NCBI GenBank assembly: GCA_040757335.1
Contig: JBFLXB010000012.1
Location: forward strand, 15,246 to 79,245
Direction of reading: 5' to 3'
Origin: Nitrospirota bacterium
GTDB lineage: Bacteria > Nitrospirota > Nitrospiria > 2-01-FULL-66-17
DNA length: 64,000 bases
Shown: positions 2,046-52,672 of the stretch, one piece after another
Numbering within the stretch: the first letter of the stretch is position 1
Layout of the letters: every line of letters starts with the position of its first letter
The notes under the pieces: generated by a model
Databases searched by the model: none
What the model was told of the DNA's origin: nothing
Seen by the model: the letters and a program-made list of their open reading frames with translations, nothing else
Made by a program: the position numbers and the translations under genes

Positions 2046-2749
2046 GCCCGGTCCTCGTCGCGAAACTTGTACCCGAGCCCGCGCACGGTCAACACGTACG
2101 TGGGTTGCGCGGGCTCGGGTTCGATCTTGTCGCGCAAGCGGCCGATGTGCACGTCCACGGTGCGGTCGAGCACGTGGACCGTGTCTTGCGTGTAGAGCGC
2201 ATCCAAGAGTTGCGCGCGCGAGAACACGTGGCCCGGCGAGCGCATCAGCTTGACCAGCAGGCGCAACTCGATGGCGGTGAGCGAGACGGGTTTGCCTTTC
2301 AGGGTGACTTTGGCTTTGGCTTCGTCCACCACCAGGTCGCCGGAGGCGAGGATCTTGGTCCCCCCGCTCTCGGGCTTGTGGGCGGTGCGCCGCAAGATCG
2401 CCTTCACGCGCGCCACCACCTCGCGGGGGGAAAACGGTTTGGTCACGTAGTCGTCGGCGCCGATGGAGAGGCCGACCAGTTTGTCCACTTCCTCCACTCG
2501 GGCCGTGAGCATCAGGATCGGCACCTCGGAGCTCTGGCGGATTCGACGACAGACCTCCAGCCCGTCCAGTTTGGGGATCATGAGGTCGAGGACGATGAGC
2601 GCAGGAGGGTGGCGTTGTGCAATCTCCACCGCTTGCGCCCCGTCGGCCGCCGACCGCGTCTGGAATCCTTCGCGTTCGAGGTAGACCTTGAGCAGGTTGG
2701 AGGTTTTGGGATCGTCCTCCACGATCAGGACCAACGGGTTCGTGCTCAC
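2042..2749 (-). CDS. OmpR/PhoB-family response regulator (REC plus winged-helix).
   Basis: MSTNPLVLIVEDDPK...DLMIPKLDG receiver, and a C-terminal trans_reg_C (...TYVLTVRGLGYKF). Confidence 0.9.
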   Translation of the reverse strand: MSTNPLVLIVEDDPKTSNLLKVYLEREGFQTRSAADGAQAVEIAQRHPPALIVLDLMIPKLDGLEVCRRIRQSSEVPILMLTARVEEVDKLVGLSIGADDYVTKPFSPREVVARVKAILRRTAHKPESGGTKILASGDLVVDEAKAKVTLKGKPVSLTAIELRLLVKLMRSPGHVFSRAQLLDALYTQDTVHVLDRTVDVHIGRLRDKIEPEPAQPTYVLTVRGLGYKFRDEDRA

Positions 2750-2758
2750 AGCACCATC

Positions 2759-3544
2759 CTAGACCGGCTGGGTCACGGTGAGATCACGTGCGTGTGACGT
2801 TTCTGCGACGGCGGCCGCTTCGTCGGCCGTCAAAGCAGCGGGGCGGAGTGCCACCCCGAAGAGGCGCTCCCAGCTCGCAACCAGTGTTTGGCAGACCTCG
2901 ACCGGCGTGACGCTTTCACGATGCGCGCCCAGTCCGGTGATGGACTCCAACGCGTCCGGCTCGGCCGGGAAGAACTGCGAGACCTCCCGCGGATCGTACC
3001 GCAACAGGATCGATCCGTGCTGAAGGAAGGCGGTGGGCCACCGGCGCTGAGCGCTGCCCACGACCTTTTTCCCGTCGAGGGTCAGTTCGTTTCGGGAGGT
3101 TGCGGCGAAACAGAGCGGAGACCCCGAGGCCTGGCGCACGCGTTCGGCATCGCGGTCGCGCCGCGCGACGCGAAAGCCGAGCCGGACCAGCGCGGCTTCC
3201 AGGGCAACCCCGATGGTCTCGTACGTGCCGCGAATGGTGGGAGGGAAACACGGGTGCGGAACAGGAGCGACCACGCTGTACGTCACTTCGTGCCGGTGGT
3301 AGACGGCGCGGCCGCCGGTGGTCCGCCTGACCACGGGAACGCCGGCGTCGCGGCAAAGGTCGAGGTCGACGACCTGATCCGGCCGTTGGAAATACCCCAG
3401 TGAAATGGCGGGTCGGTCCCACCCATAGAGGCGGAGCGTGGGGCCGCTCGCGCCCCGACGGCAGGAGTCGACCAATGCCTCGTCCACGGCCATGTTGTAG
3501 GAGGCGGGAGACGGAGGATCGAGGATCAATCGCCAAGGGTCCAC
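2759..3544 (-). CDS. Lipoate-protein ligase / octanoyltransferase family protein (BPL_LplA_LipB catalytic domain).
   Basis: Approx. 260-aa protein with a BPL/LPL-type catalytic domain signature (RLYGWDRPAISLGYFQ ... RRTTGGRAVYH ... K-containing motif LDGKKVVGSAQRR). Confidence 0.7.
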   Translation of the reverse strand: MDPWRLILDPPSPASYNMAVDEALVDSCRRGASGPTLRLYGWDRPAISLGYFQRPDQVVDLDLCRDAGVPVVRRTTGGRAVYHRHEVTYSVVAPVPHPCFPPTIRGTYETIGVALEAALVRLGFRVARRDRDAERVRQASGSPLCFAATSRNELTLDGKKVVGSAQRRWPTAFLQHGSILLRYDPREVSQFFPAEPDALESITGLGAHRESVTPVEVCQTLVASWERLFGVALRPAALTADEAAAVAETSHARDLTVTQPV

Positions 3545-3666
3545 GCGCCCAGTCTGGAGGATGCCGCGATGAAGGTCAAGGGGCGCGCGTTGAAGGCGAC
3601 GGGAGAGCGATGATAGAATGTCGCGTCCGCCGTACCGACGCGGTTCCGGTCCGCCTCTACCACACG

Positions 3667-4488
3667 ATGCCGAAAGCCCGCACCATGCCCCTGGCCCTGA
3701 CCGTCGCGACCTCGGATTCCGGCGGCGGCGCGGGAATCCAAGGCGACATCAAGGCGATGGAGGCCAACGGCGTGTTCGCGCTGTCGGTGGTGGTCGCGGT
3801 GACGGCGCAGAACACCAAGGCGATCTCCCGGATCCATCCCTTGCCGCGCGCGGTGATCGAAGCGCAGCTCGACGCGGTTTTCGACGACTTTGCGATCGAT
3901 GCGGTGAAGACGGGGATGTTGTTCTCGGCCGATATCGTGCGCCTCACCGCCGAACGCCTGCGCAAGTGGTCGGCGCCTCATCTGGTCGTCGATCCGGTCA
4001 TGGTCTCGAAAACCGGCACGACGCTGCTCCAACCGGACGCCGTCGACGTCATGAGACGGCATCTGTTCCCGCTGGCGGAGGTGGTGACGCCCAACGTGCC
4101 CGAGGCGGAAGCGCTCCTCGGGACGCGGATCAGCTCCGTGGAGGAGGCGCGCGCGGCCGCGGCGGCGATCCATCGTCTGGGCTGCCGCGCGGTCTTGCTC
4201 AAAGGCGGCCATCTATCGTCGTCGCCGGCCACTGACGTGCTCTACGATGGCGCGACGTGGACCGTGTTCCCCGGCGAATGGATCGACGTGCCGCACACCC
4301 ACGGAACCGGCTGCGCGTATGGCGCGGCGATCGCCGCGCACCTTGCTCAGGGCGCGGACCTGACGGAGGCGGTGCGCGCGGCGAAACAATACGTGACGGC
4401 GGCGATCCGACACGGACTGGCCATCGGACACGGCCGGGGACCGGTTCACCACTTGTACCGATTGGCGGACGACGAAGGGAGTCAATAG
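3667..4488 (+). CDS. thiD: Hydroxymethylpyrimidine / phosphomethylpyrimidine kinase.
   Basis: [24 protein letters not shown]... is the canonical ThiD N-terminus, and ...[17 protein letters not shown] is the C-terminal motif. The ORF-track start at 3400 adds an implausible Arg/Pro-rich leader. ATGs at 3667 or 3685 are the likely starts. Confidence 0.85.
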
Positions 4489-4491
4489 ACC

Positions 4492-5136
4492 ATGTTTACG
4501 GGCATTATCGAAGAACTGGGCGTGGTCCAGGCGCTCGACCGGGGCCTGCAGTCCGCGGTCCTGACCATCCTTGCAAGGCGGATCATCAGCGGGATGAGGG
4601 TGGGGGACAGCGTCACGGTCAACGGCGTGTGCCTGACCGTGGTGCGATTCAGCGAGCAGGGGTTTGGAGTCGACGTGTCGCCCGAAACGCTGCGCGTGAC
4701 CGCGTTGGGAGGCCTGGCGCCGGGCGACGGGGTGAACCTGGAGCGGGCGGTGCGCGTCGGCGACCGGCTCGGCGGTCACCTGGTGAGCGGCCACGTGGAG
4801 GCGGTGGGCCGGGTGGTTTCTCGCGCGCCCGACGGCAACGCGGTCAACCTCACGATTGAGGCGCCCCGCGAGATCCTCCGCTACTGCGTGGGCAAAGGCT
4901 CGATCACGGTGGACGGCGTCAGCCTCACCATCACGGGGCTGACCGAGAAGACCTTCGGCGTGACCATCATTCCCCACACGGCGCAGGCCACCAACCTCGG
5001 ACTCAAGCCCCCAGGCGCGCTCGTGAATCTTGAGCCTGACCTGATCGCCAAATACGTGGAGCGTCTGTTGTTGGGGGGCGAGGTCAAGCCCGAGAAGGTG
5101 GACGCGGAGTTTTTGAGAAAACGGGGGTTGCTGTAA
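4492..5136 (+). CDS. ribE: Riboflavin synthase alpha chain.
   Basis: MFTGIIEELG...VNGVCLTV...SITVDGVSLTI shows the duplicated lumazine-binding repeats. Length is 214 aa. Confidence 0.9.
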   Translation: MFTGIIEELGVVQALDRGLQSAVLTILARRIISGMRVGDSVTVNGVCLTVVRFSEQGFGVDVSPETLRVTALGGLAPGDGVNLERAVRVGDRLGGHLVSGHVEAVGRVVSRAPDGNAVNLTIEAPREILRYCVGKGSITVDGVSLTITGLTEKTFGVTIIPHTAQATNLGLKPPGALVNLEPDLIAKYVERLLLGGEVKPEKVDAEFLRKRGLL

Positions 5137-5144
5137 AGATAATA

Positions 5145-5163
5145 GAGGGGGCGTCACCCCCTC
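5145..5163. terminator. GC hairpin (GAGGGGG-CGTCA-CCCCCTC) between the convergent ribE and FGE-family genes.
   Basis: A 7-bp perfect stem with a 5-nt loop directly after the ribE stop. Confidence 0.4.
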
Positions 5164-5972
5164 GCCCCGTCAGCATTGCGCGCGCAGCGAAAGCCCACGT
5201 CGTTTAGTCGGCTGTTCGGGTCGGCGCCGAACCGGAAGCTTCCGCGCGCGTTATGTGCCAGGATCGCCTGGAGCGCGTCCGGTGCGAAGTGCCCGACGCC
5301 CGCCCATGACGACCCGCGCAGCACGCGGAGCGATGGGGTTCCGGCCGGCGCCGCGGCGGGGTTGCCGGGATACGGTTCATACCAATCCGCGGTCCACTCC
5401 CACACGTTTCCGACCAGATCGTGAACGCCCATCGGGCTCTGGCCGCTCGGGTAGCTCCCGACCGCGGTGGTTCCGCTTCTCGCGCCGCCAAGGTTGGCGC
5501 GGCTGAGTTCGAACCCGTCGCCCCACGGATACAGCCGGCCCTCGAAGCCGCGGGCGGCCTTTTCCCATTCGGCTTCCGTGGGCAGGCGTTTGCCCGCCCA
5601 CCGGCAATAGGTATCCGCGTCGTCCCACGTGACCGACGTCACGGGGTGCCGAGCCCGGCCCGGTGGGTGGCGCGCACCACGCCAGTCCGGCGGGGGCCGT
5701 CGCTGCGTGGCCTGCACGAACACCTGGTAATCCGCATTGGTGACCTCGAACTTGTCGAGGTAATACCCCGGAATGTTCGCGGTGTGAGCGGGGTGCTCGT
5801 CTTCGAACCACGGCTTGAGGATTCCATACTCCGCGGCCCGATGTTCGGTGTCCACCTGATCCGTCCCCATGACGAACGTCCCGCCGGGGATGTGGACCAT
5901 GCTGGGTGGAGTTGGGGTGCAGGCGATCGCGATGAACACCGAGAGGGCGAGGGGGAGAGTCACTTCGCGCAT
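5154..5972 (-). CDS. FGE-sulfatase (formylglycine-generating enzyme) family lipoprotein. It lacks the catalytic Cys pair.
   Basis: Start at the MREVTLPLALSVFIAIAC lipobox. Motifs WDDADTYCRWAGKRLPTEAEWEKAARG, ...LRGSSWA and ...GFRCA are present. There is no CxxxxC before RFG. The ORF-track N-terminal extension overlaps the upstream gene, so the true start was placed at 5972. Confidence 0.75.
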   Translation of the reverse strand: MREVTLPLALSVFIAIACTPTPPSMVHIPGGTFVMGTDQVDTEHRAAEYGILKPWFEDEHPAHTANIPGYYLDKFEVTNADYQVFVQATQRRPPPDWRGARHPPGRARHPVTSVTWDDADTYCRWAGKRLPTEAEWEKAARGFEGRLYPWGDGFELSRANLGGARSGTTAVGSYPSGQSPMGVHDLVGNVWEWTADWYEPYPGNPAAAPAGTPSLRVLRGSSWAGVGHFAPDALQAILAHNARGSFRFGADPNSRLNDVGFRCARNADGARG

Positions 5973-6982
5973 CGGAATCCGAATCCCTTGTTCTTGATCT
6001 CGGGCGCGAACCGGCTGCGGTTGTAGGCCGGGGAGCTGAGGCCGCACCCGTAGGACAGACAGTCGTACCACGACCCGCCGCGGAGCACTTTGTTCTTCGT
6101 GCCGTAGTGGACGTTCGGGAATTGATTGCCGGGATACGGTTGGTACCAGTCGGCCACCCACTCATACACGTTCCCGGCCATGTCTTCCACGCCTTCGGGG
6201 GTCCGGCCCTGGGGGAAGGAGCCCACCGGCAGGGTGTCGCCCGCGACGTGTTTGGTGAGCCAGTATTGCGGCGTGTTGGCCTTGAGCGGGGCGAATTCGT
6301 CGCCCCAAGGAAAGCGTCGTCCGTCGCCGCTGCGCGCGGCGCGTTCCCACTCGGCCTCGGTGGGCAGCCGCTTGCCGGCCCAGCGGCAGAACGCGTCGGC
6401 ATCGTGCCAATTCACGTACACCACCGGGTGATCGGCTTTGCCCTCGGGGAAGCGCCCCTCGATCCAGTGAAACGGGGGATCGCGACGGGTCGCGCGTACG
6501 AATGCCTCGTACATGGCGTTGGTCGTCTCGTACGTGTCGATCCGGAACGTCTTGACCTGCACCCGATGCTCGGGCCGCTCGTCTTCGTCGCCGGGCCCGT
6601 CATCGCCGCGCCCGTTGTTCCCCATGGTGAACTCGCCGCCGGGAATCGTGATCATGGATTGCTTGATCGGGGACGGCGTCGATGCGTCCGACCCTGTTGC
6701 CGCCACCCGTGCGAGCACCGGTTCGATGGTGACGCCTGGCGAACCGAACAGATGACATTCGGCGCAGGCGGGGTCGGTGGTTGGCTGGAGGGTGGGAATG
6801 CGCGCTCCCACGTGACAGCGGCCGCAGACCGTGTGCGTCGGGGGAGGGAGGGTGGGCGTCAGCGAGGGCGGATTCGAGGCCGGGTCAGCGGCGCTGGCGG
6901 CGCCCCACGCCGCCATGGGGACGCACGCCGCTACGAGCCAGCGCAAACCACGCCGGAACAGCCGAAAATGCACGCCAGCCAT
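5960..6982 (-). CDS. Diheme cytochrome c - FGE-sulfatase family fusion protein, secreted.
   Basis: Signal peptide. Two CxxCH motifs (CGRCH, CAECH). An FGE domain follows (WHDADAFCRWAGKRLPTEAEWERAAR, LRGGSWYDCLSYGC, GFRCAK) and retains a CxxxxC pair. It lies 7 nt upstream of the previous FGE-family gene. Confidence 0.75.
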   Translation of the reverse strand: MAGVHFRLFRRGLRWLVAACVPMAAWGAASAADPASNPPSLTPTLPPPTHTVCGRCHVGARIPTLQPTTDPACAECHLFGSPGVTIEPVLARVAATGSDASTPSPIKQSMITIPGGEFTMGNNGRGDDGPGDEDERPEHRVQVKTFRIDTYETTNAMYEAFVRATRRDPPFHWIEGRFPEGKADHPVVYVNWHDADAFCRWAGKRLPTEAEWERAARSGDGRRFPWGDEFAPLKANTPQYWLTKHVAGDTLPVGSFPQGRTPEGVEDMAGNVYEWVADWYQPYPGNQFPNVHYGTKNKVLRGGSWYDCLSYGCGLSSPAYNRSRFAPEIKNKGFGFRCAK

Positions 6983-7033
6983 CGCGGCGTGTAGTCATAA
7001 CAAAAGTGAGGGGAAAACACCAGCGCGGAGGGG

Positions 7034-7450
7034 TTATTGGCTTTGGAACCGAATGATCGTGATCAGGGAACTCCATGTTCTCCCGGTGGGCTGGCCGTCG
7101 TCGTCCACTTGAGAAACGCCGTCCGGAGGAGCCGTCACCTGGATCATGGCTCCGTCCTTCGCCGTGATGGTGTAGGTATGCGTGGGCTCCATGAACGACG
7201 CCGCAGTGTTGAGGTGCTTTTCATAGAACCCCACGATGTCCTTCGCGGAGTCGTCGGAATAGTACTGGTACTGATACAGGTGTGTTTCGCCCGAGGCATC
7301 GGCCTTGTCGTCGAGCCGGTGAACTTTCCAACCCGGGTAGGACGGCACGCCGAGCGTGGTCGGTTTGGCGACCGGTTTCGAGGCCGCGAGTCCGGTGGCG
7401 GCGTTGAGCACGATTCCGGTTATCGCGATCACCAGAGCCATTCGTTTCAT
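7034..7450 (-). CDS. Small secreted protein of unknown function.
   Basis: MKRMALVIAITGIVLNAATGLAAS signal peptide. Otherwise uncharacterised. Confidence 0.5.
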   Translation of the reverse strand: MKRMALVIAITGIVLNAATGLAASKPVAKPTTLGVPSYPGWKVHRLDDKADASGETHLYQYQYYSDDSAKDIVGFYEKHLNTAASFMEPTHTYTITAKDGAMIQVTAPPDGVSQVDDDGQPTGRTWSSLITIIRFQSQ

Positions 7451-45323: not shown

Positions 45324-45409
45324 AGCATCGAGCACCCCAGTGTGTCCCTCTTTAACCGGCCAACCGGTCCGTTTGATTTTTATTGGTCGATAGATTAGCC
45401 TTCACCACC

Positions 45410-46309
45410 ATGCACGATCGGGATACACGTCCGGGGGCGTCGCTCATCATCCCGGTGCACAACGAGGCGATGAACATCGCGGACCTGGTCAAGCGCGCCC
45501 GGGCCGCGCTCGCGCCCGACGATGAAGTCCTGGTGGTGGACGACGGCTCGACCGACAACAGCGGGCAGTTGGCGCGCGACGCCGGGGCACGAGTTGTCAG
45601 CCACCCCTACCGGATGGGCAACGGCGCCGCGATCAAGACGGGGATCCGTCAAGCCCGCGGCGGCGTCCTGGTGATGATGGACGGGGACGGCCAGCACAAC
45701 CCCGCCGACATCCCGCGCCTGCTGGCCCAAATCGGGCCCTACGACATGGTGGTAGGCGCGCGCGCCGGCGAGTCCCAGAGCGACGTGCACCGCTGGCTCG
45801 GGAACCGATTCTACAACGTGTTCGCCTCCTACCTCACCGGCCGAAAGATTCTGGATACCACGTCGGGGTTCCGGGCGATCAAGGCGGGCTTGGCCAAGCG
45901 ATTCGTGTATCTGTTGCCGAATGCGTTCTCGTATCCGACCACGCTGACCATGGCCACGATCCGCGCGGGTCACAGCGTCACGTTCGTGCCCATCGTGACC
46001 GCACGGCGCAAGGGCGAGAGCAAATTGCACCCCATCCGCGACGGATTCCGGTTTTTGGTCATCATGTTCAAGATCTCCACGCTCTATTCCCCGATCAAAG
46101 TGTTCCTGCCCGTCAGCGCCGTATTTTTCCTGACCGGCTTGTGTTATTACTTCTACACCTTCCTCGAATTCCGCCGCTTTACCAACATGTCCGCCCTGCT
46201 GTTCATCAACGCGGTGATCATCTTCCTGATGGGCCTGGTGTCGGAGCAGATCGCGCAGATGCGGTTTGAGCATAGCGAACGCATGGACCAGCACGACTCG
46301 GAACCGTGA
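45410..46309 (+). CDS. GT2 polyprenyl-phosphate glycosyltransferase (DPM1/GtrB/ArnC-like).
   Basis: LIIPVHNEAMNI, VVDDGSTDNS, VMMDGDGQHNP, and two C-terminal TM helices. Confidence 0.8.
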   Translation: MHDRDTRPGASLIIPVHNEAMNIADLVKRARAALAPDDEVLVVDDGSTDNSGQLARDAGARVVSHPYRMGNGAAIKTGIRQARGGVLVMMDGDGQHNPADIPRLLAQIGPYDMVVGARAGESQSDVHRWLGNRFYNVFASYLTGRKILDTTSGFRAIKAGLAKRFVYLLPNAFSYPTTLTMATIRAGHSVTFVPIVTARRKGESKLHPIRDGFRFLVIMFKISTLYSPIKVFLPVSAVFFLTGLCYYFYTFLEFRRFTNMSALLFINAVIIFLMGLVSEQIAQMRFEHSERMDQHDSEP

Positions 46310-46314
46310 GTCAT

Positions 46315-46429
46315 GAAATCCCCCCCTCCCCCCCTTTTTCAAAGGGGGGTAATGGGTAGCCGCTGACCAGAGGTCCTTCAAGGACCGTCAAGTCCCCCCC
46401 CTTTAACAAAGGGGGGAGGGGGGGATTTG
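46315..46429. repeat. Composite inverted repeat built from two inverted copies of the C6/G6 hairpin element, flanking the central palindrome GGTCCTTCAAGGACC.
   Basis: 46315..46349 is GAAATCCCCCCTCCCCCCCTTTTTCAAAGGGGGG. 46394..46429 is its reverse complement (CCCCCCCCTTTAACAAAGGGGGGAGGGGGGGATTTG). The centre is 46372..46386. Confidence 0.7.
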
Positions 46430-46533
46430 CTGACCTTGCCCCGCTTAACGTCTGTTACTTCGGCACCTACTCGTCTGGCGAAGGTTATCCCGTCAATCGC
46501 GTTCTCATCGAAGGGCTGCGGAGGGCCGGGGCC

Positions 46534-47601
46534 GTGGTCTGGGAGTGCCGGGCCTCAATGACGGGGGACGAGGGGCCGGCCGCAGCGGAGCGATGGAAGG
46601 CGGCGCGGGGTCCGCTGGCGTGGCCCTGGCTCGGGGCGCGGTGGGCCTGGGCGTGGGCGCGGTTGATGTTTCGGTTCCTGATCGGTCCTCGTACCGACAT
46701 CGTTATCGTCGGGTATCCGGGCCATGTGGACGTGTTACTCGCGAGCCTCCTCACACGGCGGCCGGTGGTCCTCAACGCCCTCTTGTCTCTGCACGACACC
46801 GTGGTTAACGACCGCAAACTGCTCGCCGAACGGTCTCTCGGCGCCCGTATCCTGCACGCGCTGGACCGGCTCGCGTGCCGCGTCGCGGACCTCGTGCTGT
46901 TGGATACCCAGGCGCACATCGACTACTTCCGCGCGGAGTTCGGGTTGCCCGCGGAGCGGTTTTATCGGGTGTGGGTCGGGTCCGTGCGCGAGGGGCGACT
47001 GGTCGCCCCTCGCGCGTCCGGGACGCCGCATCGCGCATTGTTCGTCGGGACCTTCATTCCGCTCCACGGCGTCGGAGCGATCCTCGATGCCGCGACGCGG
47101 CTCGAACAATCCGACACGCGAGTCACGGTTCGTTTGATCGGGCGCGGGCAGGAGCTTGCGGCCATCGCGGAGCGGATCCGGCAATCACGCCTCTCCGGCG
47201 TCGAGCTGGTCGATAGCTGGATCAGAGGGGAGGATTACGAGCGAGAGCTGGCCGAGGCCGATATATGCCTGGGCATCTTCGGCGCCACGGCCAAGGCGCA
47301 ACGCGTGATCCCCTCCAAGGTCTACGACGCGCTGGCCGCGGGCCGCCCCATCATTACCGCCGACACCCCGGCGATCCGCGAGCTGCTGACCCACGGCCAG
47401 GATGCGTGGCTGTGCCCGGCCCACGACGGCGCCGCGCTGGCCGAGGCTATTCTCACATTGGCCCGAGACGAAACGCTTCGCGGGTGTCTGGCCCGCGGTG
47501 CGCGCCGCACCTACGAGACGCGGTGTTCGCCGGAGGTGATTGGGAGGGACGTGGTGGCGAGATTGGAAGGGCTGGTTAGGGAAAAAGGCGTTATCCGATG
47601 A
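46534..47601 (+). CDS. Glycosyltransferase family 4 with a possibly disrupted 5' end. The conserved N-terminal CYFGTY... segment is in frame upstream of the annotated GTG but has no start codon.
   Basis: C-terminal GT4 motifs are present (...RPIITADTPAIRELLTHGQDAWLCP). In frame, 46441..46533 encodes PLNVCYFGTYSSGEGYPVNRVLIEGLRRAGAVVWEC. The frame runs back through the hairpin repeat to a TAG at 46357, with no ATG/GTG/TTG in between. Confidence 0.6.
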   Translation: MVWECRASMTGDEGPAAAERWKAARGPLAWPWLGARWAWAWARLMFRFLIGPRTDIVIVGYPGHVDVLLASLLTRRPVVLNALLSLHDTVVNDRKLLAERSLGARILHALDRLACRVADLVLLDTQAHIDYFRAEFGLPAERFYRVWVGSVREGRLVAPRASGTPHRALFVGTFIPLHGVGAILDAATRLEQSDTRVTVRLIGRGQELAAIAERIRQSRLSGVELVDSWIRGEDYERELAEADICLGIFGATAKAQRVIPSKVYDALAAGRPIITADTPAIRELLTHGQDAWLCPAHDGAALAEAILTLARDETLRGCLARGARRTYETRCSPEVIGRDVVARLEGLVREKGVIR

Positions 47602-47648
47602 ACGTTGTTCGTTGTCCGGTCAACCGACAACCGACAACGAATTTCGAA

Positions 47649-48137
47649 CTACTTCAACGCCTTGACGTCCTTCAGCACCTGATTGTGGTGATCGTCGACT
47701 TTGACCTTGGGGTAGATCTTGGCGATCTTGCCCTGTTTGTCGATCAGGAACGTGGTGCGCTCGATGCCCCAGTATTCCTTGCCGTACATCTGTTTGAGCT
47801 TGTACACGCCGTACGCTTTGGAGGCGGTTTGGGTCTCATCGCTCAGCAAGGGGAACGACAGGGAGAACTTGTCGCTGAACTTTCGGTGTGAGTTCAGGTT
47901 GTCGAGGCTCACGCCGAGAATCGCCGCGCCCGCTTTTTCATAGTCCTTCGAGGTATCCCGGAACCCGCACGCCTCGACCGTGCATCCCGGCGTGTCGTCT
48001 TTGGGGTAAAAATAGAGCACCACCGCCTGTTTCCCCCGGAACTCCTTGAGCGAGATCGTCTTGCCGGTGCTGGCCGGAAGCGAAAACTCCGGAGCGGAAT
48101 CACCCTCTTTGAGCGGCTGGTCGGTCCGTGTCCCCAT
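47649..48137 (-). CDS. bcp: Thiol peroxidase Bcp (peroxiredoxin, AhpC/TSA family).
   Basis: GAGGAG RBS. LKEGDSAPEFSLPASTGKTISLKEFRGKQAVVLYFYPKDDTPGCTVEACGFRD has the canonical T/PxxC peroxidatic motif. Confidence 0.9.
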   Translation of the reverse strand: MGTRTDQPLKEGDSAPEFSLPASTGKTISLKEFRGKQAVVLYFYPKDDTPGCTVEACGFRDTSKDYEKAGAAILGVSLDNLNSHRKFSDKFSLSFPLLSDETQTASKAYGVYKLKQMYGKEYWGIERTTFLIDKQGKIAKIYPKVKVDDHHNQVLKDVKALK

Positions 48138-48139
48138 GG

Positions 48140-48562
48140 CTATTTCTTCTCCTCTTTGGTCACGGTGACCTTCTTGCTCGCCTCCCAGGCCGCGGAGTGG
48201 TTGGGCGCCTCCAGCGCCCGCAGGGTGGTGGACTCGTCCAGCGCGATGGTGAACGTCACCACCGGGCGGGTGAGCACCGGCGTCAACGTGGCCCGCGCGA
48301 GTTCCACCTCGTCGGCATAGAGCGCGATCCACTGGACCGCGTGCTCCGACAACGAGGGGTGCGGAGCCTTGCCCACCGTGATCGTCACCTTGAAGGGTTC
48401 GCCCGCCTTCACGGCGTCCGGGGCCTCGATGAGGGGAGTGTGCGCGTCGTTGGCCGTCCGGTTGATCTTGCTGTAAGGGCCTTCGGCCCCCGCCGGTTCC
48501 AGCACCGCCGACAGCACCAACGCGCACCACGCGACCACCAGCACTCCCAGCAATCGGATCAT
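48140..48562 (-). CDS. Secreted superoxide-reductase-like protein (desulfoferrodoxin Fe-binding domain fold) lacking the Cys iron ligand.
   Basis: Signal peptide. AHTPLIE...VTITVGKAPHPSLSEHAVQWIALY aligns with SOR KHVPVIE...VGKEIPHPNTTEHHIRYIELY. In place of the C.IHGLWE motif it has PNHSAAWE (no Cys). Confidence 0.55.
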   Translation of the reverse strand: MIRLLGVLVVAWCALVLSAVLEPAGAEGPYSKINRTANDAHTPLIEAPDAVKAGEPFKVTITVGKAPHPSLSEHAVQWIALYADEVELARATLTPVLTRPVVTFTIALDESTTLRALEAPNHSAAWEASKKVTVTKEEKK

Positions 48563-48601
48563 CGCGAAACTCCTTTCCTGGATGAACGGATCAAAGCGAG
48601 T

Positions 48602-49258
48602 TTACGAGTTGACGTTTTTGGTGGACGAGGAATTTCCTGCGAGCGTTTCGATGTTGAATCGGAGGACTTCGACGAGACGTTTGGCTTGTTGGGTGGGGCT
48701 GGCGGCTTCCAGGAAGAGTTGTTTTTCGACGGAGGTGAAGGGCAGTTCGGAGCAACAGATGTTGAGAAAGGCCGGCTCGTGGACGACGCGTTTGAGAAAG
48801 ACCTCGATCTGCGAGGCGCGGCCGATGAGCTTGCCGAACTCTCTCACCAGGCCGTGGAGTTGGCACTTGAGCTCCGAGGGCAGCGGACACGGCTCGTCGC
48901 CTTCGTGAAACGGCTCGACCCAGGCCTGGCGGTACGGCGCGTCGCAGAACTGTTCGCGGACCGTAAAACGCGTGAGGCCGAACAATGTGATGTTGAACCT
49001 CCCGCCGTCCATCTGCTGCACCGCGGTGATTTTCCCCGCGCACCCCACCGAGTGGATCGCCGCGTCGTTGCCGTAATAACGCTCCTCCCACCCGTCCTGG
49101 AGCAGGATCATGCCGATGATCCGCTCGCCGTCCAACGCGTCGCGCACCATGGCGCGGTATCGAGGCTCGAAGATGTGCAGGGGCAACGCGACGTGCGGAA
49201 AGAAGACCAGATCGGGGAGAGGGAACAGCGGAATGACTTTGGGGAGGGCCATCACCAT
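48602..49258 (-). CDS. Lon protease N-terminal (LON substrate-binding) domain protein.
   Basis: VIPLFPLPDLVFFPHVALPLHIFEPRYRAMV...IGMILLQD matches the Lon N-domain. No AAA+ or protease domains. The start could be 49258 or 49252. Confidence 0.7.
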   Translation of the reverse strand: MVMALPKVIPLFPLPDLVFFPHVALPLHIFEPRYRAMVRDALDGERIIGMILLQDGWEERYYGNDAAIHSVGCAGKITAVQQMDGGRFNITLFGLTRFTVREQFCDAPYRQAWVEPFHEGDEPCPLPSELKCQLHGLVREFGKLIGRASQIEVFLKRVVHEPAFLNICCSELPFTSVEKQLFLEAASPTQQAKRLVEVLRFNIETLAGNSSSTKNVNS

Positions 49259-49321
49259 CGTGTCTCCGACGGAGAGTTGGCGGTACTGTACAAATCGCAC
49301 CCAAAAAATGTCAAGCTCATG

Positions 49322-49440: not shown

Positions 49441-49675
49441 CCGCATTCGCGGTCGAACCTCAGATAAGTTGAATTTTAGCACCTCTTCTCCTATACTCCC
49501 TGCGCCGACGCGGGCAGCCTGAGGACGAAACAGAGAACTCCTGGCGCGGCACGGACAAGAGCTTGCCGACATTGACAGGTTGCTCAAAAAGCTCCAGCCG
49601 CAAGGCCGCAGCGAGGAGGAGACCGGAGCGTACTGGGTCGTACGTGAGGATCTCCGACGAGCGAGAACGCAGCGG

Positions 49676-50281
49676 ATGGACTTTTTCAGCAACCTGCTGA
49701 GGTCCGAGATGGATTCCACACTCTCATGGTCTGCCATGAAACGGAAGGTCACCGTAAAGACCGTGCCGGTCTATGCGTTGGCGATCGCGTTGGTGTGGCT
49801 GGCCCAGCCCGTGGCGCGGTGGTTCGCGGTCGGCGTGGTGATCGTGGTGCTCGGCGAGGCGATCCGCGTGTGGGCGGCGGGACACCTGTATAAAAACGAA
49901 CGCGTGGTGACCAGCGGTCCGTACGCTTACGTGAAGAATCCCTTGTACCTCGGCACGTTCCTCATCATGGTGGGCTTGTGCGTGATGGCTTCGAACTATG
50001 TCCTATTGGCGATCGGTGTGGCGGTGTTCGTGGCCTACTACGCGCCGTTCAAGCAGCGTCGGGAATCCGACCGGCTGCGGGAGCGGTTCGGGGACGCGTG
50101 GGTGCGGTACGACCATGACGTGCCGGCGTACCTGCCGCGCCTGACGCCTTACCCTGCTCGCGAAGACAAGCCCTGGCAATGGGCGGCTTTCATTCGAAAC
50201 GACGAACACGGCACGGTGCTGGCCGTGATGCTTGGGATCGTGGTGCTGGCCTGGAAGCTCTGGAGCGTCTCGGCCGCATGA
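49676..50281 (+). CDS. Isoprenylcysteine carboxyl methyltransferase (ICMT/PEMT) family membrane methyltransferase.
   Basis: GHLYKNERVVTSGPYAYVKNPLYLG...YYAPFKQRRESDRLRERFGDAW is the ICMT-family C-terminal motif. The start is uncertain (49580, 49676 or 49709). Confidence 0.6.
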   Translation: MDFFSNLLRSEMDSTLSWSAMKRKVTVKTVPVYALAIALVWLAQPVARWFAVGVVIVVLGEAIRVWAAGHLYKNERVVTSGPYAYVKNPLYLGTFLIMVGLCVMASNYVLLAIGVAVFVAYYAPFKQRRESDRLRERFGDAWVRYDHDVPAYLPRLTPYPAREDKPWQWAAFIRNDEHGTVLAVMLGIVVLAWKLWSVSAA

Positions 50282-50418: not shown

Positions 50419-51105
50419 ATGTCGGCCGCGCTATCGCGCGAGGCGATCGCCCTTTCCAGCCCCCGGTACATCCGCCGCGGGCGGCCGTGGCAGCCCGACA
50501 TTCTGCTGGTGGACCACCAGGGGCGCAGCGTGATCGTGAAGGATTACGCGCCCCGCAAATGGATCTACCGCGTCGGGGTGGGGCTGTATTCGGTCTGGCG
50601 CGAAGCAACGATCTATGAATTGCTCGACGGGATTGCCGGTGTTCCACGGTTTGTGGGCCGGATCGACCGCTACGCGTTGGCGACCGAATACATCCCGGGG
50701 AAGGGAGCCGGAGAGGCGCAGCCCGGCGAGGTCGGTGACGCGTTTTTCGATCGACTTCACGAGACGGTGGAGGCCGTGCATCGCCGCGGGGTGGCGTTGT
50801 GCGATTTGCGGAACATGAACAACGTGTTGATCAGCGATGGCGGCGATCCGTACGTGATCGACTTTGCGGCGGCGATTCGACGGGGCGCCCGCTGGAACCT
50901 GTTGCTCAACGGCCTGTTTCGGGTCTTTGTGCAGGACGACCGCTTGGGGGTGATCAAACTCAAGCGACGGTTGGCGCCGTACCTGGTGACCACCGAGGAG
51001 TCCAAGCGATACCGCAAGGGGGTGTTCATGCAGTCGCAAGCCATTGCGCTGCGGAACTGGGGACGACGGTGGTTGAAACGGCTGGTGGGGATGAAGGCCG
51101 GTTAG
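50419..51105 (+). CDS. Lipopolysaccharide kinase (Kdo kinase KdkA / WaaP-like) family protein.
   Basis: Small atypical kinase with VIVKDY, CDLRNMNNVLIS and YVIDFAAA (HxD/N...DF), about 228 aa. Confidence 0.5.
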   Translation: MSAALSREAIALSSPRYIRRGRPWQPDILLVDHQGRSVIVKDYAPRKWIYRVGVGLYSVWREATIYELLDGIAGVPRFVGRIDRYALATEYIPGKGAGEAQPGEVGDAFFDRLHETVEAVHRRGVALCDLRNMNNVLISDGGDPYVIDFAAAIRRGARWNLLLNGLFRVFVQDDRLGVIKLKRRLAPYLVTTEESKRYRKGVFMQSQAIALRNWGRRWLKRLVGMKAG

Positions 51106-51118
51106 CCGAGGGAGAACC

Positions 51119-52672
51119 ATGCGACGGGCATTGATCAGCGTGTCGAACAAAGACGGCGTGGTGGATGTGGCCAAAGGTCTGGTCGCCTTGGGGTTCGAGA
51201 TCGTGTCGACGGGCGGGACGGCCAAACTCCTCCGCGAGCAGAAGGTGGCGGTGCGGGACGTCTCCGAGATCACCGGGTTTCCCGAGATGTTGGACGGTCG
51301 GGTCAAGACGCTGCATCCCAAGGTCCACGGTGGTCTGTTGGGGCGGCGCAGGCTTCCCGAGCACGTGGAGCAGATGAAGCGCCACGGGATCGACCCAATC
51401 GACGTGGTGATCGTGAACTTGTATCCCTTCGAAGCGACCATCAACAAGCCCGGCTGCACGTTCGACGAGGCGATCGAGAACATCGACATCGGCGGTCCCT
51501 CGATGTTGCGGTCGGCCGCCAAGAACTTCGAAGAGGTCGCCGTGGTGGTGGACCCCGCCGACTACCCGCGGCTGCTCGATGAGCTCAAACGACCGGAGGG
51601 CGTTAGCCGCGAGACCCGGATGTTGTTCGCGCGAAAGGTGTTCGCCCACACCTCGCGCTACGACGGCCTGATCGCGCTGTACCTTGATCGCGGCGCGCCG
51701 GCCGCGGAACCCGCGACCCGGTTTCCCCAGACGCTGGTGCTGCGGTACGAAAAACTCCAGAACCTTCGTTACGGGGAGAACCCGCACCAGCAGGCCGCGG
51801 TGTATCGCGACCCGTCCGTGACCGAGGCGAGCACGGCGCGGGCTCGCCAGCTCCACGGCAAGGAGATGTCGTACAACAATTTCTTGGACGCGCACGCCGC
51901 GCTCGAGTTGGTCAAAGAGTTCGACACGTGCGCGGTGGTGATCGTCAAGCACAACAACCCGTGCGGTGTCGCCCTGGGCGCCACGCCGGCCGAGGCCTAT
52001 CGCAAGGCCCGCGAGGGTGATCCCGTGTCCGCGTTCGGCGGGGTGGCGGCGTTCAACCGCCAGGTGGACGGCGAAACCGCGAAGGAAATCGGCTCCACGT
52101 TCATGGAGGTCATCGTGGCGCCGGGATTCGAGCCCGCCGCGGTCGAGGAACTCGGGCGCAAAAAGGCATTGCGCCTGCTCGACGTGGGGCCATTGAGCAC
52201 GGGGCCCGCCGAGAGCATGGACTGTCGCAAGATCGTCGGCGGCTTGCTCTATCAGGAACGCGATCTGGGGCGGATCGACGACGTCCGCAAGCTGCGGGTG
52301 GTGACCACGCGCACGCCCTCCGCCGAGGAGTTCGACGCGCTCGCGTTCGCGTGGAAGGTCGCCAAACACACCAAGTCCAACGCCATCGTGTACGCGCGGC
52401 CGGACCGGACCATCGGTGTGGGCGCGGGCCAGATGAGCCGGGTGGACTCGGTGAAGATCGGCGCGATGAAGGCCGTGTTGCCGCTCGCGGGTACGGTGAT
52501 CGCCTCCGACGCGTTTTTCCCGTTTCCCGACGGCATCAACGAAGCGGCCAAGGTGGGCGTGACCGCGGTCATTCAACCGGGCGGCTCGGTGAAGGACGAA
52601 GAGGTCGTGGCGGCGGCGAATCAGCATGGGATGGCGATGGTGCTCACGGGCATGCGCCACTTCCGGCACTGA
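51119..52672 (+). CDS. purH: Bifunctional AICAR transformylase / IMP cyclohydrolase.
   Basis: MRRALISVSNKDGVVDVAKGLVALGFEIVSTGGTAKLL..., 517 aa, colinear with PurH. Confidence 0.95.
   Translation: MRRALISVSNKDGVVDVAKGLVALGFEIVSTGGTAKLLREQKVAVRDVSEITGFPEMLDGRVKTLHPKVHGGLLGRRRLPEHVEQMKRHGIDPIDVVIVNLYPFEATINKPGCTFDEAIENIDIGGPSMLRSAAKNFEEVAVVVDPADYPRLLDELKRPEGVSRETRMLFARKVFAHTSRYDGLIALYLDRGAPAAEPATRFPQTLVLRYEKLQNLRYGENPHQQAAVYRDPSVTEASTARARQLHGKEMSYNNFLDAHAALELVKEFDTCAVVIVKHNNPCGVALGATPAEAYRKAREGDPVSAFGGVAAFNRQVDGETAKEIGSTFMEVIVAPGFEPAAVEELGRKKALRLLDVGPLSTGPAESMDCRKIVGGLLYQERDLGRIDDVRKLRVVTTRTPSAEEFDALAFAWKVAKHTKSNAIVYARPDRTIGVGAGQMSRVDSVKIGAMKAVLPLAGTVIASDAFFPFPDGINEAAKVGVTAVIQPGGSVKDEEVVAAANQHGMAMVLTGMRHFRH

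Follow-up and report, generated by a model that had tools for sequence, protein, structure and literature searches.

What might a homologue of superoxide reductase (SOR) do outside the cytoplasm, when it lacks the cysteine that completes the SOR iron centre? The question is raised by a small gene in a 64,000-nucleotide stretch of DNA (the window) from a Nitrospirota bacterium (contig JBFLXB010000012.1 of assembly GCA_040757335.1, positions 15,246 to 79,245). On the minus strand of the window, positions 49258-47649 carry three head-to-tail open reading frames that specify, in order, a protein made of a Lon N-terminal domain only (the LonN-only protein), a SOR-like protein (SORL), and the peroxiredoxin Bcp. 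An earlier note, made from the sequence of this DNA, had described the same three-gene set, and the open reading frames are found exactly where it placed them. In that note SORL was taken to be an exported relative of SOR that had lost the thiolate ligand of the metal.

SORL is a SOR homologue that lacks the axial cysteine

By profile, by sequence and by fold, SORL is a true SOR homologue. The gene (48140..48562, minus strand) encodes 140 amino acids, including a signal peptide, with a class II SORL domain that matches the Pfam family PF01880 (Desulfoferrodox) with 80.2 bits against a cutoff of 22.2. When SORL was used to search the sequences of the PDB, all of the matches were superoxide reductases, the best being the SOR of Ignicoccus hospitalis (4bk8, E 1.5e-16). 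Moreover, an AlphaFold2 (AF2) model of SORL that was built from a 32-sequence alignment had a mean pLDDT of 91.6, and the top Foldseek matches to this model were SORs (41% identity, E 1e-10; TM 0.69 to 4brj). The similarity proposed in the earlier note is therefore significant in both profile and structure searches. Like the 1Fe SORs or neelaredoxins (class II; for example those of Ignicoccus hospitalis, 4bk8, and Pyrococcus furiosus, 1do6), SORL belongs to PF01880 and has a seven-to-eight-strand beta-sandwich, the H-x-P, P-H-P and x-H ligand motifs and a C-terminal W-E; the Ignicoccus enzyme is 41% identical to it.

An Fe(His)4Cys centre defines SOR (PMC3116461). Consistent with what had been read from the sequence before, three of the histidine ligands are kept in SORL: His41 (in A-H-T-P; codon at 48440..48442, minus strand) aligns with the first SOR iron ligand, and His68 (P-H-P) and His74 (E-H), which are encoded within 48341..48361 on the same strand, align with the second and third. 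All three are invariant in the family described below. The remainder of the centre is altered. In a gapless alignment to 4bk8, the SOR sequence C-N-L-H-G-L-W corresponds to P120-N121-H122-S123-A-A-W126 of SORL, so that P120-N121-H122-S123 (48194..48205, minus strand; codons ccc aac cac tcc) stands in place of the SOR C-N-x-H. The position of the axial cysteine is thus taken by Pro120 and that of the fourth canonical histidine by Ser123, with an invariant histidine, His122, one residue earlier. The mature protein is cysteine-free, its sole cysteine, C13, lying within the signal peptide; on both points, the N-H-S in place of C-x2-H and the location of the one cysteine, our alignment agrees with the earlier reading. 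In addition, the Glu-Lys pair of the SOR motif E-K-H-x-P is missing from SORL, which has D-A-H-T-P.

These differences (the proline for cysteine, the histidine shifted by one and the missing E-K pair) set SORL apart from the 1Fe SORs, as do its Sec-type leader, the absence of a rubredoxin partner gene nearby, and its scores against the NCBIfam SOR models, both of which are below cutoff (38.8 against 61.9 for TIGR00332, neela_ferrous, and 24.1 against 146.9 for TIGR00320, dfx_rbo). Because the axial cysteine is replaced by an invariant proline, the fourth histidine is shifted and the Glu-Lys pair is absent, the sequence of SORL rules it out as a superoxide reductase of the canonical Fe(His)4Cys type.

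Note that after the SORs, the Foldseek search with the SORL model returned SoxY and SoxZ chains at 17-19% identity, and that the Pfam SoxY family gave a weak match to SORL (23.8 bits). We therefore entertained the idea that SORL might carry sulfur as SoxY does, or be a structural protein of Ig-like fold that binds no metal, given that SoxY too is a periplasmic protein of similar size with such a fold. However, the SoxY match does not reach the gathering cutoff of 28.4, the matches to SORs are far stronger, the C-terminus of SORL (VTVTKEEKK) has no cysteine-bearing arm, and no sox genes are found nearby. The sulfur carrier was rejected on its sub-cutoff score and the missing arm, and for a metal-free protein the invariance of four histidines at ligand positions would be hard to account for. 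We consider either version very improbable.

A cysteine-less clade with Sec-type leaders

A search of approximately 5.8 billion proteins identified 154 homologues of SORL, and we counted motifs, cysteines and leaders in the 120 of these that were listed. The sequence P-[NT]-H-[ST]-x-x-W is present in 117 of the 120, the mature domain is free of cysteine in 118, and a hydrophobic N-terminal leader is found in all 120. Orthologues thus do not retain the ligand, and the claim in the earlier note that canonical superoxide reduction is impossible without the thiolate holds family-wide. In 32 diverse members, the residues equivalent to H41, H68, H74, H122, P120 and W126 are invariant, with a mean column identity of only 48%. 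(A lysine at position -1 relative to the first histidine occurs in 72 of the 120 listed homologues, and glutamate at -2 is not conserved.) Because the four histidines at ligand positions are invariant in a family that is otherwise divergent, a metal site is likely to have survived the loss of the thiolate, and we regard it as quite probable that SORL is a non-canonical, metal-binding derivative of SOR.

When 1.84 billion cluster representatives were searched with a profile, 670 relatives were recovered. Proteins of the cysteine-less type ranked on top; below them were canonical SORs of the cytoplasm, which have C-N-L-H-G-x-W, and SORs that combine a classical Tat (twin-arginine translocation) leader with a retained cysteine. 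In a neighbour-joining tree of representatives, the cysteine-less sequences form one clade with no cysteine-containing sequence inside it. SORL has all the features of this clade, namely a Sec-like leader, the series H-x-P, P-H-P, x-H and P-[NT]-H-[ST]-x-x-W, and a mature domain without cysteine. Loci of the clade were found in Nitrospirota, Methylomirabilota/Rokubacteria, Poribacteria, Binatia, Acidobacteriota and Beta- and Gammaproteobacteria (including cultured Variovorax), among others. We found no solved structure for a member in the PDB and no NCBIfam model that matches above its cutoff; a full-text literature search, whose coverage left out many subscription papers, turned up the TAT-SOR class of SORGOdb but nothing on a cysteine-less exported SOR clade.

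The same data bear on whether SORL is simply an ordinary SOR whose sequence was misread or misassembled, or whose gene is decaying into a pseudogene. SORL is identical to the NCBI protein MEW6682928.1, 'class II SORL domain-containing protein [Nitrospirota bacterium]', and the identical protein occurs in independent assemblies, as a cluster of 8 members from NCBI, JGI, ENA and Logan. Moreover, the altered motif is shared by more than 150 homologues, which have intact open reading frames and come from at least five phyla. We found no evidence in support of an error or a pseudogene, an explanation that was rejected and that we consider extremely improbable.

The predicted signal peptide of SORL comprises residues 1-26 (MIRLLGVLVVAWCALVLSAVLEPAGA, followed by EG; 48485..48562, minus strand) and contains C13. 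It starts with MIR, continues with a hydrophobic core and ends with A-G-A before a glutamate, a cleavage motif of the signal peptidase I type. The leader (MIRLLGVLVV...) has no twin arginine, and in the AF2 model residues 2-20 form a helix. The basic start, the core, the cleavage motif and the missing twin arginine suggest a Sec signal, as had been proposed in the earlier note. (A lipoprotein was considered and rejected, since C13 is preceded by V-A-W, which is no lipobox, and close homologues, P0006 and P0007 among them, do not have the cysteine.)

The contrast drawn in that note between an exported SORL and SORs confined to the cytoplasm did not survive, since SORs are not solely cytoplasmic: a Tat-exported class, the TAT-SORs, is described in SORGOdb (PMC3116461), and among 86 cysteine-retaining representatives we found the canonical Tat motif in 14, or in 19 by a looser pattern. 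None of the 120 listed cysteine-less homologues contains the Tat motif RRxF[LIVM][KRQ]. TAT-SORs such as Gmet_2613 of Geobacter metallireducens resemble SORL in being exported proteins with a single-domain SOR fold, and several of the cysteine-retaining sequences that are nearest SORL in a distance matrix bear Tat leaders; however, TAT-SORs keep both C-N-L-H-G-x-W and the RRxF[LIVM]K leader, and the cysteine-less clade has neither. Export by itself is therefore not new; the novelty of the clade is the combination of Sec-type export with loss of the thiolate.

The choice of export route may also determine the metal. The Tat pathway exports proteins that are already folded and loaded with cofactor. 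Because the exported SORs that retain the cysteine use Tat, and the cysteine-less clade has Sec-type leaders instead, we infer that SORL would be exported by Sec and would fold and take up its metal in the periplasm. Work by Tottey and colleagues in 2008 is said to have found that Sec substrates that fold in the periplasm take copper or zinc according to the Irving-Williams order. If SORL behaves in the same way, then its four-histidine site would more readily be filled by Cu(II/I) or Zn(II) than by Fe(II). The Cu-only and CuZn superoxide dismutases (periplasmic SodC and fungal SOD5) are small exported beta-sandwich proteins of Greek-key or Ig-like fold that hold a redox metal on four histidines outside the cytoplasm. 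Their likeness to SORL is a functional analogy only, as we detected no homology in sequence or fold, and SORL has no match to Sod_Cu.

Gene neighbourhoods and the likely role of SORL

The clade consists of two subfamilies. Subfamily A, with L-T-P at residues 93-95, comprises the window and ten genome loci; the other 70 of the 80 genome loci belong to subfamily B, with Y-L-H-P. In the window the L-T-P codons are at 48278-48286, and the threonine is found where subfamily B carries an extra, nearly invariant histidine. Judging by the strand topology, this extra histidine would be expected at the end of the sandwich that bears the metal site, where it could be an additional metal ligand. We compared the neighbourhoods of the 80 genome loci using profile and phmmer searches on six-frame open reading frames together with independent gene calls.

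In subfamily B, a cupredoxin protein is encoded within 4 kb in 58 of the 80 loci. This protein of approximately 237 residues is exported and has a type-1-copper core with H...C-x2-H-x2-M ligands as well as a CarboxypepD_reg domain; it weakly resembles 5fc9 and the cupredoxin domains of NirK. (Among the subfamily-B loci L007-L080 and others, examples are found at 6415-7128, minus strand, of locus L039 and at 6001-6714 of locus L091, with the ligand pattern LHN...CDLHSWM. The protein is highly conserved, the top 120 of its more than 2000 homologues being at least 71% identical, and is annotated merely as 'plastocyanin' or 'carboxypeptidase regulatory-like domain protein'.) In 45-50 of the 80 loci, all of subfamily B, we also found a 4HB_MCP-HAMP-HisKA-HATPase kinase, a CheY-like receiver and a REC-adenylate/guanylate cyclase. 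These genes are co-oriented with the SORL gene, are arranged in three or more gene orders, span several phyla, and include no DNA-binding output; the independent gene calls agree with this pattern. (In L039 the set spans 2692-5817 and in L091 7218-10278; the receiver has 124 residues.) In some database entries (the representatives P0263, P0328 and P0346), a response regulator at the start runs into a SOR-like domain at the end. Frameshifted or read-through gene calls are the probable cause, and such entries bear out, in passing, that the receiver and the SOR-like gene are adjacent.

The arrangement in subfamily B, in which the SOR-like protein is paired with a blue-copper protein and with a kinase whose pathway has no DNA-binding output, points to an input module for periplasmic redox state or metal. 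SORL might accordingly be a periplasmic sensing subunit, whose metal site would signal a small oxidant, a metal or the redox state to the membrane-bound histidine kinase, with a cyclic nucleotide as output. The SORL gene is the last in the same-strand set of kinase, receiver and cyclase genes, the set recurs across several gene orders and phyla, and since no DNA-binding regulator is encoded, the periplasmic proteins are likelier to be inputs than regulated targets. However, every kinase locus belongs to subfamily B, and the 11 subfamily-A loci, with fetched flanks of up to 6 kb, contain no kinase, receiver or cyclase, which argues that SORL either functions independently of the kinase or relies on a kinase encoded elsewhere. 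The suggestion in the earlier note that the protein binds a different metal or acts as a sensor is reasonable in general, but its sensor part draws support from the kinase, CheY, cyclase and cupredoxin loci of subfamily B and not from the subfamily of the window. For SORL itself we consider a sensing subunit unlikely.

The neighbourhoods of subfamily A are more varied, with LonN and Bcp, a sugar ABC transporter, a LolA-like protein or a faintly recognizable DJ-1-like gene at various loci. In L006 (5248-6372, minus strand) and in L093-L097, which come from a Nitrospira-like lineage, there are a TolC-like outer-membrane protein (OEP), a DedA/VTT membrane protein and a convergent di-haem cytochrome c peroxidase (CCP), with the SORL gene between the TolC-like and DedA/VTT genes. 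The CCP is a second, independent association with an enzyme that removes peroxide. In L004 (4210-6426), from a metagenome-assembled genome of Troglogloeales, the genes immediately before the SORL gene, on the same strand, are znuA and one for an ABC ATPase (znuC) of a Zn/Mn uptake system, which hints at a link to metal supply. A profile (c2) of the cupredoxin of subfamily B matched nothing in the 64-kb window, nor anything in the Nitrospirota loci L001-L006 and L009.

The znuA-znuC pair directly upstream in L004 is one of the observations that would fit SORL as a non-catalytic chaperone or buffer in the periplasm that supplies or sequesters copper (or zinc) for other exported proteins. Four invariant histidines in a small exported beta-sandwich would suit such a role, and in subfamily B the adjoining Sec-type blue-copper protein has to receive its metal in the periplasm. 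The Cu(I) chaperones that are known, however, usually combine methionine with histidine, and no methionine is conserved in the SORL family alignment; furthermore, the window locus has no genes for copper resistance or copper enzymes, and a chaperone would leave the link with Bcp unexplained. We therefore assign this role a low probability.

Alternatively, SORL might still be a working superoxide reductase, in which four histidines would hold Fe(II) with another axial ligand or none, superoxide in the periplasm would be reduced to H2O2 with electrons from a periplasmic carrier, and Bcp would clear the H2O2. Database labels agree with this idea, in that homologues, including the members of the SORL cluster in JGI, are called 'superoxide reductase'. 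Three histidine ligands are in place with the fourth adjacent, the fold is unchanged, a peroxidase gene follows SORL here and a CCP gene is near other members of subfamily A, and the cupredoxin next to subfamily B is a possible electron donor. Nonetheless, the thiolate belonging to the Fe(His)4Cys centre by which SORs are defined (PMC3116461) is replaced by proline throughout the clade, the window protein has D-A-H instead of the SOR E-K-H, and the clade has no Tat motif, unlike the exported SORs that retain the cysteine. In addition, neither a rubredoxin nor a cupredoxin gene is near SORL, the 64-kb window as a whole is without a c2 cupredoxin, and the scores against the NCBIfam SOR models are well under their cutoffs. 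A working superoxide reductase is thus decidedly improbable.

The interpretation that we favour, and to which we give slightly better than even chances, is that SORL is a periplasmic four-histidine protein, metallated after export, that takes part in oxidant handling or redox sensing. In this model SORL would react with, or report on, a periplasmic oxidant or the redox state of the periplasm, and in the Nitrospirota lineage of the window its gene would probably be co-transcribed with the LonN-only gene and translationally coupled to that for the cytoplasmic Bcp. Coupling of SORL to Bcp would plausibly fit the handling of peroxide derived from superoxide, and is not proof of it. Similarly, the occurrence of subfamily A beside peroxide removers (Bcp here, CCP elsewhere) is compatible, on thin evidence, with superoxide-to-peroxide chemistry. 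Any specific chemistry for SORL remains tentative, and we hold each such assignment to be somewhat doubtful.

Several points weigh against this interpretation. Bcp is cytoplasmic and SORL periplasmic. The neighbourhoods of subfamily A are heterogeneous, and the link with peroxidases could be coincidence. The context of cupredoxin and kinase is that of subfamily B and is found at none of the 11 loci of subfamily A, of which the window is one, so that it transfers weakly to SORL. The assignment of the leader to Sec rests on sequence features only, and the model requires that the four histidines converge on one site, which the shifted His122 would have to reach.

A bolder version of the favoured interpretation is that the clade constitutes an unrecognised class of periplasmic superoxide-scavenging metalloenzymes, in which the SOR scaffold carries a thiolate-free, four-histidine centre of copper (or of another metal acquired after export). 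Such an enzyme could dismutate superoxide, or could reduce it with electrons from a blue-copper protein. We think this unlikely; were it true, Nitrospirota, Methylomirabilota, Poribacteria and many Betaproteobacteria would possess a periplasmic superoxide defence or sensor that is mislabelled as an iron SOR.

With the cysteine absent from every member of the clade, SORL ought not to be classed as a superoxide reductase. Hundreds of proteins of the clade are named 'superoxide reductase' or 'desulfoferrodoxin family' by annotation pipelines, and the hosts, which include Nitrospirota, Rokubacteria/Methylomirabilota, Poribacteria, Variovorax and other Betaproteobacteria, are ecologically important and mostly aerobic. 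Metabolic reconstructions could thus attribute to these organisms an iron SOR that these proteins cannot be, since the defining cysteine ligand is missing. The clade also amounts to a natural experiment in which the SOR scaffold is placed outside the cytoplasm without its thiolate, and it offers cultivable members (Variovorax species) as well as conserved partners in the blue-copper protein, the kinase and the cyclase. SORL of the window is itself an ordinary member of this uncharacterised family, found in a putative lineage-specific operon with Bcp.

The putative LonN-SORL-bcp operon and its surroundings

The first gene of the putative operon (48602..49258, minus strand) encodes the LonN-only protein of 218 residues, which matches PF02190 with 113.9 bits over profile positions 2-198 of 200. 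It therefore contains a full LON_substr_bdg domain, without the AAA+ or protease part of Lon, and gives only weak, partial matches to models of full-length Lon. Stand-alone LonN homologues number more than 7800. The third gene, bcp/PrxQ (47649..48137, minus strand), encodes a thioredoxin-dependent thiol peroxidase of 162 residues that has no signal peptide and matches NF006960 with 164.8 bits (cutoff 140) and AhpC-TSA with 136 bits. As read from its sequence, the peroxidatic and resolving cysteines form the CxxxxC pair C52/C57 in PGCTVEAC.

The LonN-only and SORL genes are separated by 39 nt, and the SORL and bcp genes by 2 nt. Within the 39-nt gap, a Shine-Dalgarno-like sequence, GGAAAGGAG (48570..48578, minus strand), is found 7 nt before the SORL ATG. 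A sigma-70-like promoter match, TTGACA-18-TACAGT (49285..49314, minus strand), is located 27 nt upstream of the LonN start; it agrees with the consensus at 10 of 12 positions, and searches found 2 such sites against 0.3 expected in shuffled sequences, although it is a consensus match only. At the other end, directly after the bcp stop, a hairpin that is a candidate terminator (47593..47649, minus strand) has a minimum free energy of -24.1 kcal/mol and a z-score of -3.08, with 0 of 200 shuffled sequences folding as well. The hairpin has no T-run and is thus not a classical intrinsic terminator. It separates the convergent bcp and glycosyltransferase genes and may be a bidirectional terminator. 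We found no terminator-like site inside the operon on the minus strand. Given the gaps of 39 and 2 nt, the promoter-like site, the terminal hairpin, the lack of an internal terminator on the minus strand, and the synteny in L001, L002 and L081-L083, the three genes are likely to be co-transcribed as one operon.

The bcp ribosome-binding site, GAGGAG, sits within the K-E-E-K-K codons at the end of the SORL gene, and the bcp ATG is 2 nt past the SORL stop codon. The K-E-E-K-K tail (aaagaggagaagaaa; 48143-48160 of the window) is kept in those relatives that have bcp downstream. The tail may thus be constrained by the initiation of bcp translation rather than by the function of the protein.

The order LonN-SORL-Bcp is conserved in L001, L002 and L081-L083, and in L003 the order is LonN-Bcp-SORL. 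By contrast, the genes around three LonN homologues that are 43-47% identical are unrelated, and the idea that LonN and Bcp form a general conserved pair is therefore not supported. The trio is specific to one Nitrospirota lineage. Accordingly, what the earlier note described as an oxidative-stress trio is best seen as an operon particular to this lineage (the window, L001, L002 and L081-L083, with L003 reordered), and is not a general system.

On either side of the operon, the window contains plus-strand housekeeping and envelope genes (49580-50281, 50419-51105, 51119-52672 and 45383-47601), which encode a PEMT/ICMT-like methyltransferase, a kinase-like protein of approximately 228 residues that has no Pfam match in relatives, PurH and two glycosyltransferases. 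This order of flanking genes is also kept in the related contigs L081-L083, in which the called flanks have PurD/PurH-PEMT at one end and a pair of glycosyltransferases at the other, as in the window.

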